From: Chromatiales bacterium
GTDB lineage: Bacteria; Pseudomonadota; Gammaproteobacteria; Chromatiales; Chromatiaceae
Assembly (NCBI GenBank): GCA_050116235.1
Contig: JASFPB010000001.1
Location: forward strand, 1-31,305
DNA: 31,305 nucleotides
Direction: 5' to 3'
Below, piece by piece: positions 3,108 to 26,196 of the stretch. Position 1 is the stretch's first letter. Each line of letters opens with the position of its first letter. The notes under the pieces are model-generated. The model ran no database searches. It was not told the DNA's origin and worked only from the letters and a program-made list of their open reading frames with translations. The position numbers were made by a program, and so were the translations under genes.

Positions 3108-3827
3108 ATGACAGCAAAGCCAAAGCGCAATCTCTTCGCGGTTGTGTTCATCATTGCTGCAGCGACACTGTTTCTGGCTTCGGCCGCACCGGCTGATGTC
3201 CTGCTCTACGATGGAAAGCCGTACTTGCACGTAATTCACGAAGGCCGGTCAATCAAGATCCAGCGGATTCAGGATCCCGGTTATGAGCTGAAAGGCTATT
3301 TTGCAAAAACGGCACGCAAGTGTCCGCCGTTCTGCATTCAACCGATCGCCGTGGATCCCGCCGTCAGAACGATTGGCGAGATCGAGCTGTTTCACTTCAT
3401 GGAGAACGACCTCAGGGAAGGTAGAGGGGTTCTTATCGATGCCCGCACACCGTCGTGGCACAAGAAAGGCACCATCCCGGGCTCGGTGAACTATCCATTC
3501 ACACTCTTTACGCAGGATGAAAATGCGGATGAACGCGACGCCTTGTTTCGGGAATTCGGCGCAAAACCGCGACAGCAGCCCGGCCTGATCGAGAAAACCA
3601 TGCAGGGACTCGGATTATCCGACAAGCAGTACCTGACAGATCGCTGGGATTTCACCGGGGCCAGAACACTGGTTCTCTGGTGCAACGGACCGGCATGCGG
3701 TCAAAGCCCGAGGGCGATAGAAGGCCTGATCAGCGCGGGATATCCGGCCGACAAGATTTTCTACTACAGGGGTGGAATGCAGATGTGGCAGTTGTGGGGG
3801 CTGACGACAGTCGTCCCTGAATCATGA
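3108..3827 (+). CDS. Periplasmic rhodanese-domain sulfurtransferase (SoxL-like)
   Basis: Signal peptide, C72-PPF-C76, LIDART, GTIPGSVN, active-loop C192-NGPA-C197-GQS and YYRGGMQMW rhodanese signature. Confidence 0.85.
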   Translation: MTAKPKRNLFAVVFIIAAATLFLASAAPADVLLYDGKPYLHVIHEGRSIKIQRIQDPGYELKGYFAKTARKCPPFCIQPIAVDPAVRTIGEIELFHFMENDLREGRGVLIDARTPSWHKKGTIPGSVNYPFTLFTQDENADERDALFREFGAKPRQQPGLIEKTMQGLGLSDKQYLTDRWDFTGARTLVLWCNGPACGQSPRAIEGLISAGYPADKIFYYRGGMQMWQLWGLTTVVPES

Positions 3828-19083: not shown

Positions 19084-19234
19084 TATTCCCTCTGCAGCGC
19101 GTGTTTCTCCAGCAGACCTCCACAAACATGAGTCAGATCAAAACCTGACTCCGCGTCAGACTATATAGTCGAGAGTCTGAATGTCCCGATTCAAACAGTT
19201 ATCGGGACGGCTCGGTCGGAAAGAGGTGGACGAG

Positions 19235-20110
19235 ATGACAAAAAAACAGGAAGCGAAGAACAAGTCAGAGAAGAACAGCATGACCATTGGCCCTTCAATC
19301 CAGATTGATGAAGAGGACGAGGGACCAAAGACGAAGAAAATCAGTAAAGACGACTATTTCAATGCGCTCGGCAAGCTCCAGATCGAACTCGTGAAACTGC
19401 AGGAGTGGGTCAAGGCGAAAGGGCTCAAGGTTGTCGTCCTCTTCGAGGGGCGCGATGCTGCCGGCAAGGGCGGCAGCATCAAGCGCATCACCGAACCGCT
19501 CAATCCGCGTATCTGCCGCGTCATCGCATTACCCGCACCGACCGAGCGCGAGAAGACCCAGTGGTATTTCCAGCGCTACATCGAGCACCTGCCAGCTGCC
19601 GGTGAAATCGTACTGCTGGATCGCAGCTGGTACAACCGTGCAGGTGTCGAGCGTGTCATGGGCTTCTGTACCGAGGACGAATACTGGGAATTCATGCGCA
19701 CCTGCCCCGAGTTCGAGCGTATGCTCGTACGTTCCGGCATCATCCTTATCAAATACTGGTTCTCGGTCAGTGACGAAGAGCAGGAGCGCCGTTTCCAGAA
19801 GCGGGTCGATCGTCCGGAAAAACGCTGGAAACTGAGTCCGATGGATCTCGAGTCTCGCAAGCGCTGGGTCGAGTACTCGAAAGCGAAGGACGTGATGTTT
19901 GCGCATACCGACATCAAGCAGGCGCCCTGGTACGTGGTTGATGGTGACAACAAGAAACGCGCGCGCCTCAATGTCATTTCCCACCTGCTGAGCCTGATTC
20001 CCTACGAGGATCTGACACCGCCACCGATCAAGCTGCCCCCTCGCGAGGACAAGGCCGGTTACGTCAGACCACCGATCTCTGACCAGAACTTCGTCCCCGA
20101 AGTCTTCTGA
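19235..20110 (+). CDS. ppk2: Polyphosphate kinase 2 (class I-type)
   Basis: Walker A FEGRDAAGKGG, Walker B LLDRSWYNRAGVERVMGF, KYWFSVSDEEQ and WKLSPMD. ATG 19235 has a GAGGTGG RBS; the alternative start is 19181. Confidence 0.95.
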   Translation: MTKKQEAKNKSEKNSMTIGPSIQIDEEDEGPKTKKISKDDYFNALGKLQIELVKLQEWVKAKGLKVVVLFEGRDAAGKGGSIKRITEPLNPRICRVIALPAPTEREKTQWYFQRYIEHLPAAGEIVLLDRSWYNRAGVERVMGFCTEDEYWEFMRTCPEFERMLVRSGIILIKYWFSVSDEEQERRFQKRVDRPEKRWKLSPMDLESRKRWVEYSKAKDVMFAHTDIKQAPWYVVDGDNKKRARLNVISHLLSLIPYEDLTPPPIKLPPREDKAGYVRPPISDQNFVPEVF

Positions 20111-20120
20111 AAGACACCCG

Positions 20121-20151
20121 CAGTGCCGCGCCTGCAATAGCGCGGTGCCTG
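20121..20151 (+). terminator. Possible hairpin terminator after ppk2
   Basis: GC-rich stem (CCGCGC/GCGCGG extended by G-U pairs) 10 bp after the ppk2 stop, followed by a weak T-tract (TTTCATGTT). Confidence 0.3.
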
Positions 20152-20287
20152 TTTCATGTTCTGCAGGGAGCGGCTCGCTTTCATGGATTTTTCACAAAGC
20201 CGGCATCCAACCCCGCAGGTCACATGGCTATGGGATATACGGCAGTTGTAGTATTGGTGTGCACGTTCAACCAACAGAGAGCGACTC

Positions 20288-21229
20288 ATGACACATCCAC
20301 TCAAGGAACTTTACGACGCCGAACCGGAATCACCTCTCTACGTGGCCATCAACCGCGTACTCGTCGAGAACGACCCGAATCTCATGCGCATGATGAAGCA
20401 GGCCAGCTCGAAGATGTGTTTGGCCACAGCGCTGACGCCGGGATTCCGCGGCTTCGACCTCATGCGCCAGGTCGGAAGCTGCCCCATGGGCATGCGCTGG
20501 AGTGCAGCCTCCGACATGACCGGCTCACTGTCACATATCTGGATCGACCAGTTCACCTACTGGGAGAGTGTCGAAGCGCACGAGGATTTCCACGAGACTT
20601 TCGAGGACGTGGTTGTTGACGCCTGCGCAAAGTGCGGCGACGTGTTGCTGGACGGACCGGAAGAGCCAGTCTACCGCATTGTCACGAGCGACCTGCCCAA
20701 GCTTGTCTCCATGAACCAGATGATGCAGCTCAACCGGGAAGGGAAGGGCAGTGGCTATGCCGTCGACTCGGGCGAGACCGTGACCGTGCTTGCCACCCAT
20801 CATGTGCGCCCCGGCAAGGAGTCCGAATTCGAGGAGGCCGAACAGCAGACGATGGAGATGCTCAAGGAGACCGCCGGCGTCGTTGGCTACCAGATCCTGA
20901 AGCGCATCGGCGTCTCCACGCTCGGTAGTGGTCATGCGACCGTCGAGTCGATGATGGAAGAGCTCAAGGAGAGTTCCGGCAGCAAGCTCAAGCGCACTGC
21001 CGAGGTGTGGGAGGGCTACTCCCTGCCGGTCGAGTATCTCGTTATGGTCGAGTGGGAAAACCTGCGAGCGGCGCAGCGTGGTATGCCGCATGTCAATGTC
21101 AAACCGGAGATCCTCTTCGTGCACGGTCCGAAGGTGCTCAACAACCTCATCAGGTTGCCGACGCTGCGAATTTCCGAGTCGATGTTCACGGAACACACGT
21201 TCCGCGAGATCCTGCAGGGCAACGCTTGA
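20288..21229 (+). CDS. sor: Sulfur oxygenase reductase (SOR)
   Basis: Colinear with my recollection of Acidianus ambivalens SOR: YVAIN; KMC44LATALTPGFRGF (persulfide Cys31 equivalent); H98-EDF-H102 and GPEE126P (2-His-1-Glu Fe site, H86/H90/E114); C113-AK-C116 (C101/C104); HHVRPGKESEFE; ILKRIGVSTLGS; YLVMVEW; FREIL. Confidence 0.92.
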   Translation: MTHPLKELYDAEPESPLYVAINRVLVENDPNLMRMMKQASSKMCLATALTPGFRGFDLMRQVGSCPMGMRWSAASDMTGSLSHIWIDQFTYWESVEAHEDFHETFEDVVVDACAKCGDVLLDGPEEPVYRIVTSDLPKLVSMNQMMQLNREGKGSGYAVDSGETVTVLATHHVRPGKESEFEEAEQQTMEMLKETAGVVGYQILKRIGVSTLGSGHATVESMMEELKESSGSKLKRTAEVWEGYSLPVEYLVMVEWENLRAAQRGMPHVNVKPEILFVHGPKVLNNLIRLPTLRISESMFTEHTFREILQGNA

Positions 21230-21251
21230 GAGCCAGTCACGGGCATCCCGC

Positions 21252-21479
21252 TCAGTAGTGCGGTGGAACCTCGTGCCCGGGTGTTGCCGGCGATGGCAAC
21301 TGTTCGGCCATCGAATCGAGCCGGGCGACCATTTCTTGCAGCTGTCGCTGCAGCGCCTGGATCATCTCCTGCTGCACGTGAAAAACCTTGCTCAGGGTTT
21401 CAATCGTCGTCTCGTGGTCCATGACCAGTAGCTGCAGTTTCTCGATCTCTTCTTCCATCGGCAATTCATCTGGTGTCAT
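21252..21479 (-). CDS. slyX: SlyX family protein
   Basis: Short coiled coil (IEKLQ...HETTIETLSKVF..QQ..I..LQRQL) ending in EVPPHY, the SlyX C-terminal signature. Confidence 0.88.
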   Translation of the reverse strand: MTPDELPMEEEIEKLQLLVMDHETTIETLSKVFHVQQEMIQALQRQLQEMVARLDSMAEQLPSPATPGHEVPPHY

Positions 21480-21582: not shown

Positions 21583-22011
21583 ATGGACCAGGAATACATG
21601 ACAGCTTTCAAAGGGCGTTTCACCTCGGCCATGCGCTGGCCCCAGCTGGATGCCTTGTGGCATGTGCTGCATCAACAGAACGACGGCGGGTGGTTCGTCT
21701 ATGCTGTCGGTGAGAAGCCGCCCGAAAAACCGGTCACTTCCGAACAGTTTAATCTCTTTCTGGGCAAGATCGACGAGCTGCTGCGACAGGAACACGATCA
21801 CGATTACTGCGGCATCGTCTACGCGGACAGTCTGTCCGAACCAACCATTATCAAGATCTACGACCCCAACAATCTTGGCGTCTCCTGTGGCTTCAGCGAC
21901 AATCCACCGCTGCCGGGCTGGATTCTCAGCAGGCTACAGCCAATCGATCTGCCTGAAGCGATGCAGCCGCCCAAAAACCGGCGTAGCTGGTGGCAAAAGC
22001 TCTTTCACTGA
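21583..22011 (+). CDS. Hypothetical protein with HDHDYC and YDPNNLGxSCG motifs
   Basis: 142-aa ORF with protein-like composition that fills the gap between slyX and the next gene, preceded by GGAGG/GGGA. I do not recognise a named family. Confidence 0.75.
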   Translation: MDQEYMTAFKGRFTSAMRWPQLDALWHVLHQQNDGGWFVYAVGEKPPEKPVTSEQFNLFLGKIDELLRQEHDHDYCGIVYADSLSEPTIIKIYDPNNLGVSCGFSDNPPLPGWILSRLQPIDLPEAMQPPKNRRSWWQKLFH

Positions 22012-22117: not shown

Positions 22118-22543
22118 ATGTCAGAGCAACAGCAAACAGCCGCACAGCGCGAGGCCATGCAGCAGATTACACAATCCGTCATGAGCTTGCTGGATATGTG
22201 GAATCTGGAGACCGCCGAGATGCAGAGACTCTTGCAACTCCCGGACAACGTCCGTTCCAGGGCGTTTCACAAGTTCCGTGAGGGGCGTGACGTACTGCCT
22301 ACAGACAAAAGCGTCATGCGTCGTGCGACCTACCTGCTGCGGATCGCCGATGCACTCAGAACTGCCTATCCCTGTAATCCCCGTATGGCCAGCCACTGGA
22401 TTCGCACCCCGCACAGACGATTTGGTCGCCGAACCCCGCTCTCGATCATCCTCGCCGACGATACAGACAGCGGTATGATCGCTGTTCTCTCCGAACTCGA
22501 CTGCACCTTTTCCTGGGATTTGACTGGATCCAGCTGCTCCTGA
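22118..22543 (+). CDS. Xre/MbcA/ParS antitoxin-like protein (DUF2384-type C-terminal domain), orphan
   Basis: N-terminal helical HTH-like region (LLDMWNLETAEMQRLL), then RATYLLRIADALRTAYP and HWIRTPHRRFGRRTPL...GMIAVLSELD, matching the MbcA/ParS toxin-binding domain. No RES toxin gene is adjacent. Confidence 0.75.
   Translation: MSEQQQTAAQREAMQQITQSVMSLLDMWNLETAEMQRLLQLPDNVRSRAFHKFREGRDVLPTDKSVMRRATYLLRIADALRTAYPCNPRMASHWIRTPHRRFGRRTPLSIILADDTDSGMIAVLSELDCTFSWDLTGSSCS

Positions 22544-22946: not shown

Positions 22947-26196
<3,250 letters not shown>

Follow-up and report, generated by a model that had tools for sequence, protein, structure and literature searches.

The locus analysed here raises the question of whether a single gene, set among housekeeping genes on a gammaproteobacterial chromosome, encodes an intact sulfur oxygenase reductase (SOR), how far this copy departs from known SORs, and what such an enzyme would do for its host. 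The gene, sor, lies in a stretch of 31,305 nucleotides (referred to as a whole as the window) from the MAG of a Chromatiales bacterium, and consists of a single uninterrupted frame running from ATG to TGA. A previous sequence-only reading had described a divergent SOR with an intact active site in a gammaproteobacterial host. The host assignment was borne out, and the flanking genes are housekeeping genes (hrpA-like helicase, nadA, ppk2, slyX and typA). The features of the locus are:

19181..20110, plus strand: ppk2 (polyphosphate kinase 2), the upstream flank (TIGR03707 378 bits, cut-off 301.8; PF03976)
20111..21251, no strand assigned: segment of 1141 bp from the ppk2 stop to the slyX stop, holding sor and its upstream region
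20123..20148, plus strand: terminator-like hairpin just 3' of ppk2, with a 9-pair stem; the alignment shows one in the sister genome G008
20288..21229, plus strand: sor, sulfur oxygenase reductase of the Thioalkalivibrio-type branch, 313 amino acids (PF07682, PDB 9RDN, fold, dN/dS)
21252..21479, minus strand: slyX, the convergent downstream flank (PF04102 51.7 bits, cut-off 30)

A search with the Pfam SOR model (PF07682), which had been suggested as a check, matched the product over the full model (positions 2-299 of 300) at 216.6 bits (E 4.6e-64; gathering threshold 25 bits). The score against the NCBIfam equivalog for classical SORs (NF047630, SulOxRed) was 184.6 bits (E 2.1e-54), below the cut-off of 400 bits, and 47 aligned relatives all scored at a similar level (best E 5.4e-57). 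The ABM model (PF03992) reached 21.3 bits over 41 residues (165-205), below its gathering threshold of 23.1 bits, and an ABM-only label was rejected. The earlier expectation that automated pipelines could miss the gene, or label it as an ABM protein, thus held only with respect to the NF047630 cut-off; Pfam recognised the product, and many close relatives carry the name SOR in JGI or NCBI annotation. An AlphaFold model built with 47 sequences (pLDDT 78, pTM 0.83) gave SORs as all ten best Foldseek matches (TM 0.82-0.83, 30-34% identity; Acidianus SOR TM 0.83), while 9RDN was absent among the Foldseek matches listed. The ABM/dimeric alpha-beta barrel protein CT0912 (3GN6) shares the ferredoxin-like barrel (TM 0.56), but ABM proteins (PF03992, 3GN6) lack the SOR site.

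Residues C44, C65, H98, H102, C113, C116 and E126 were all present where the sequence-only reading had placed them, as was GPEEP (residues 123-127). C44, H98, H102, E126, C113 and C116 align to C31, H86, H90, E114, C101 and C104, respectively, of Acidianus SOR structures, and H98, H102 and E126 are the equivalents of the 2-His-1-carboxylate iron ligands. In the T. paradoxus SOR studied by Ruhl et al. in 2017, Cys44 is reportedly an essential residue. Judged by profile match and alignment, the sor product is a genuine SOR family member with a complete set of catalytic residues.

The departure of this copy from other SORs proved to be a different matter. Its N-terminal extension of about 13 amino acids, GPEEP in place of GPWEP, and Cys65 had been taken as divergence of the gene itself. 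The extension was confirmed, since 17 residues precede the YVAIN motif versus 4 in Ferroplasma/Acidiplasma SORs, giving 13 amino acids. All three features, however, recur in the closest PDB sequence match, 9RDN ('Sulfur oxygenase reductase', 313 aa, 8 chains; E 1.6e-161; classical SORs followed at about 1e-44), which shares with the sor product its length of 313 aa, numbering, extension, C44, C65, H98, H102, C113, C116 and GPEEP. By hand count from the alignment, 229 of 308 columns were identical (approximately 74%, residues 4-310). The novelty of sor, which the earlier reading itself had expected to drop if a near-identical characterised enzyme existed, was largely lost to 9RDN at this level of identity. 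In an alignment of 175 distinct relatives picked by similarity (70-97% identical, some proteins possibly entered twice through different trimming), C44, C65, H98, H102, C116 and E126 were invariant (175/175) and C113 was kept in 174; position 125 held E in 166, I in 7, V in 2 and W in none. Among the 121 top proteins, 119 had 15-21 residues before YVAIN. Nine classical-type rows had Cys at position 65 in no case (0/9) and W at position 125 in eight. According to these alignments, the 13-aa extension, GPEEP and Cys65 are signatures of the whole branch, common to 9RDN and not peculiar to this copy, and Cys65 is invariant in the Thioalkalivibrio-type branch only. The branch signatures derived in this analysis (N-terminal extension, Cys65 and absence of Trp from GPxEP) are all found in the sor product.

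The classical SORs used for comparison were those of Acidianus ambivalens, Sulfurisphaera tokodaii (StSOR) and Halothiobacillus neapolitanus (EC 1.13.11.55; PDB 2CB2, 6M35 and 6QPA; NF047630), and the StSOR features were taken from PMC7398979. The sor product resembles these in fold (TM 0.82-0.83), in the 2-His-1-Glu iron site and in the three cysteines, and H171, H279 and M299 preserve the classical/StSOR His166, His277 and Met296. It differs in overall sequence (30-34% identity in the structure matches), in the 13-aa extension, in Cys65 for Leu52, GPEEP for GPWEP, Phe300 for StSOR Met297 and Asp111 for Arg99, and in a chimney helix that, as read from the alignment, is four residues shorter, with Phe133 replaced by Met and Phe141 lost. 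Compared with 9RDN, about one quarter of the residues are changed, most thickly around 144-200; the chimney helix is one residue shorter, M145 stands where 9RDN has F and D111 where it has T, and the sor host, instead of being a haloalkaliphile, is a Chromatiaceae-family MAG that looks non-phototrophic and has matches in wetland RNA runs. Because of this difference of about 25%, the oxygenase:reductase ratio of the sor product may differ.

The entry 9RDN is probably the Thioalkalivibrio paradoxus enzyme TpSOR (Ruhl et al. 2017) or that of a close Thioalkalivibrio relative, given that the SOR in a MAG labelled T. paradoxus (L021) is approximately 90% identical to it (275/307, hand count). For the T. 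paradoxus enzyme, the literature reports a reductase activity that is atypically low (PMC6382920) and an optimum close to 80 C (PMC6060420). The sor product itself was 77% identical to the L021 protein, and 75-77% identical to Thioalkalivibrio SORs versus 29-33% to classical-type SORs. With approximately 74% identity to 9RDN and 75-77% to the Thioalkalivibrio proteins, sor is an ordinary further member of a widespread bacterial branch with a solved structure and a characterised enzyme.

The Thioalkalivibrio-like affinity proposed by the sequence-only reading was upheld both by the 77% identity and by the phylogeny it had suggested. In a tree of 92 rows, computed by a quick method with SH-aLRT support and no bootstrap, the sor product fell in a group of 81 rows, six of them from Thioalkalivibrio (SH-aLRT 85; 100 with the sister pair added), and nine classical-type rows fell outside this group. 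On this sequence evidence, sor belongs to the Thioalkalivibrio-type SOR branch. A protein search returned 419 homologs, of which the best 120 were all at least 73% identical. In GTDB, 61 loci were labelled Chromatiaceae, Sedimenticolaceae, Thiotrichaceae, Ectothiorhodospiraceae or unclassified gammaproteobacteria, with Halochromatium roseum, Lamprobacter modestohalophilus and Cocleimonas flava as cultured carriers. The supposed rarity of SOR in such hosts did not hold: PF07682 matched 42 of the 380 genomes available for the host's family. Full-length copies scoring like sor (196-223 bits; a score class) were present in 34 genomes, full-length classical-type copies (407-466 bits) in six, and partial matches in four. 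Two genomes, G351 and G362, carried a classical-type SOR (456-466 bits) together with a second SOR at 208-213 bits, the latter assigned to the branch by score and not by tree, and this co-occurrence suggests different jobs for the two types. Within the host's genus, SOR was found in two of 13 genomes, the sister pair G000 (the host) and G008, and was not found in the other 11, most of which are incomplete MAGs.

Gammaproteobacterial SORs from beyond extreme habitats are already on record, and the published cases include strain ODIII6 (PMC10952691), a Sor expressed in a marine vent biofilm and attributed to Thioalkalivibrio (PMC8056087), soda-lake MAGs with SOR (PMC6704655) and SOR in 39 MAGs from the Bohai Sea, most of them Desulfobacterota (PMC12345210). 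No survey devoted to the Thioalkalivibrio-type branch was found in literature covered chiefly as non-subscription main texts.

The host MAG (78% complete) encodes dsrA, soxB, soxZ, FccB, a partial RuBisCO large subunit and a C-terminal fragment only of aprA, and gave four heme-copper-oxidase-family matches; soxC and a photosynthetic reaction centre were looked for in this 78% complete genome and not found. The SORs of Halochromatium, Lamprobacter, Thiohalocapsa and a Sedimenticolaceae MAG have identical counterparts in genomes of the host's GTDB family, and the host is therefore Chromatiaceae in the broad sense. Its gene content fits a putative sulfur-storing chemolithoautotroph. Among 50 carrier genomes tested (of the 61 loci), dsrA was present in 44 (43 above cut-off), a count made across related genomes with no background control. 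PMC6382920 gives rDsr in 6/75 and SOR in 3/75 Thioalkalivibrio strains, and both were present in four of the six Thioalkalivibrio MAGs examined. The host genome also encodes a 149-aa half-size SOR-like protein with Cys and an HExxH motif (L158; G000:C75:1137-1586), which matched the SOR N-domain weakly (E 2e-4 locally; Pfam SOR 17.3 bits, below cut-off). Further possible sulfur-handling genes in the window are those for a SoxH-related metallo-beta-lactamase-fold protein with a signal-peptide-like start (25174-26196; TIGR04559 below cut-off) and a rhodanese-domain protein (3108-3827).

Among 79 of the 102 picked neighbours of SOR genes (the other 23 being same-lineage repeats), no gene family recurred beyond close kin, and a conserved operon with sor was rejected in the absence of recurrent neighbour families; TauE, rhodanese and Ni-SOD were single cases only. 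By eye, loci L002, L010, L013, L014, L017, L019 and L050 share a downstream SulP-type transporter, microcompartment shell protein and LysR regulator, which probably reflects synteny in one lineage rather than a functional link. The window itself contains a lone Xre/MbcA/ParS-antitoxin-like gene with no adjoining toxin seen (22118-22543) and a gene for a 142-aa protein without a Pfam match (21583-22011), both of which are kept upstream of typA in congeners.

Four terminator-like sites were found versus 1.2 expected in shuffles, and the hairpin after ppk2 would suggest separate transcription of sor; the search for sigma-70-like promoter sites for sor gave none (0.5 expected). Contigs of all four wetland RNA runs examined (eight other runs were left out of this count) covered sor in part at approximately 99% identity. 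Run X1 covered all 30 bins, and one RNA-run contig spanned genes on both strands, so DNA carry-over is possible in this evidence. The antitoxin-like gene had high contig depth in X1.

Taking these results together, sor encodes an intact Thioalkalivibrio-type SOR. We consider it likely that this cytoplasmic enzyme would produce sulfite from elemental sulfur or polysulfide in an O2-dependent manner, with little H2S. From what is established for the SOR family, a non-heme iron would be held by H98, H102 and E126, and the sulfur chain would be bound at C44 with C113/C116 assisting. By analogy with classical SORs, oxygenation to sulfite would take place inside a hollow homo-24-mer and thiosulfate would arise non-enzymatically, while the expectation of little H2S comes from one relative. 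In the cell, the enzyme might act in an accessory role, bypassing the rDsr route under oxic conditions without itself conserving energy; it would drain stored or excess sulfane sulfur under O2 and supply the other sulfur enzymes of the host with sulfite and thiosulfate. According to PMC12345210, SOR requires O2 and conserves no energy. Counting against this explanation are the patchy distribution in the genus and the lack of conserved sulfur-gene neighbours. Carriers also include the anoxygenic phototrophs Halochromatium and Lamprobacter, which makes for a poor fit with an energy-related oxic role.

The same chemistry could instead be mainly protective, scavenging O2 together with reactive sulfane sulfur when oxygen pulses occur and so shielding O2-sensitive enzymes such as rDsr. 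A reaction that uses up O2 without conserving energy is compatible with this, as are the phototrophic carriers, dsrA in 44/50, the accessory and patchy nature of the gene and the wetland origin of the matching RNA runs. The host's several heme-copper oxidases, however, are able to remove O2, and oxidative-stress genes were not recurrent (one Ni-SOD among the 79 scanned neighbours). We regard protection as the main role as rather unlikely, though it overlaps the preferred explanation and differs from it in physiological emphasis only.

Full oxygenase-reductase activity as in archaeal SORs, yielding sulfite and H2S from sulfur, would require the low reductase rate to be a quirk of the alkaliphile enzyme or of a high-pH assay. 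All StSOR residues required for both activities, as given in PMC7398979, are kept in the sor product, the branch conserves the residues equivalent to the pore and zinc site (M299, F300, H171 and H279), and a single branch member had been assayed in the literature found. This reading nevertheless appears improbable in view of the distance from classical-type SORs (29-33% identity versus 75-77% to Thioalkalivibrio SORs), the branch-wide change of W to E in GPxEP, Cys65, the D/E at the Arg99-equivalent position in 161 of 175 relatives, and the two genomes with both SOR types, which suggest different jobs.

The history of the site was examined by comparison with congeners. The ppk2-slyX interval spans 1141 bp here versus 54 bp in congener G002, in which the remaining gene order is kept, so sor represents a one-gene gain or loss at this site. 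In the sister genome G008 (TypA 95% identical), sor occupies the same position, and a TypA tree joining G000 and G008 as sisters (100/100) implies one sor change, the direction of which is not given by the tree. Because slyX is placed in another context in seven congeners, the empty site is visible only in G002. The family member G017 retains the last ~70 codons of a branch-type sor (L070:4966-5229; G017:C58), apparently a deletion remnant that would point to loss within the family. No notable repeats flank sor and no mobile-element genes were present among the scanned flanking genes; without such repeats, a mobile-element origin was rejected. That sor is foreign DNA, either gained of late or in decay, and now without a function, as could be read from the lone gene at a site empty in G002, from the highest GC3 of the 16 window genes checked (0.80 versus 0.50-0.75 in the others) and from the G017 remnant, is very improbable and already largely refuted by the selection signal, since the frame is intact and a dN/dS of 0.058 against L001 (at dS 0.54) indicates maintenance under purifying selection, with the same position in G008 and the lack of repeats and mobile-element genes nearby also standing against it.

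Six clusters (P0167, P0169, P0170/P0232, P0262, P0263 and P0264) made up a deep-branching clade that is sister to the Thioalkalivibrio-type SORs, and their proteins are 31-35% identical to P0001 and carry long Cys/Pro-rich extensions; C44, C65, H98, H102, C113, C116 and E126 were kept in all five full-length proteins. The single sister-clade contig examined (29% GC), in which P0167 is encoded at L125:9-1703, also carries genes for asparagine synthase, DNA polymerase X, a staphylococcal-type nuclease and an ankyrin protein. The nearest Atlas clusters of the polymerase were 94-100% viral, mostly Nucleocytoviricota, and P0167 likely represents a giant-virus SOR-like gene, as far as this gene context can indicate. 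No virus core genes were seen in the 9.7 kb of the contig, and an Atlas search with P0167 gave no usable match. Searches of viral contigs for P0001, P0167 and alignment A3 found no phage copy. The term 'sulfur oxygenase' occurred in none of 15 papers listed by a literature search, and no passage of this kind was found in a review of giant-virus metabolism (PMC9270025).

A broader proposal, which we put forward tentatively and consider possible but doubtful, is that the Thioalkalivibrio-type proteins form a distinct four-cysteine sulfur oxygenase class in which Cys65 would be catalytic or redox-active and suppress H2S release. This class would be the main SOR of rDsr oxidisers and purple sulfur bacteria, acting as an oxic sulfur/O2 overflow valve, coexisting with classical SOR in some genomes and having a sister lineage in giant viruses. 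The sor gene itself adds one member to a branch for which enzyme characterisation and a solved structure already exist; its value is comparative. Neutrophilic sulfur oxidisers carry this branch far more often than cultured examples would suggest (34/380 genomes of the family, assigned by score class), and the invariant Cys65 and the W-to-E change bear on the question of why H2S is a product of some SORs and is hardly formed by others.
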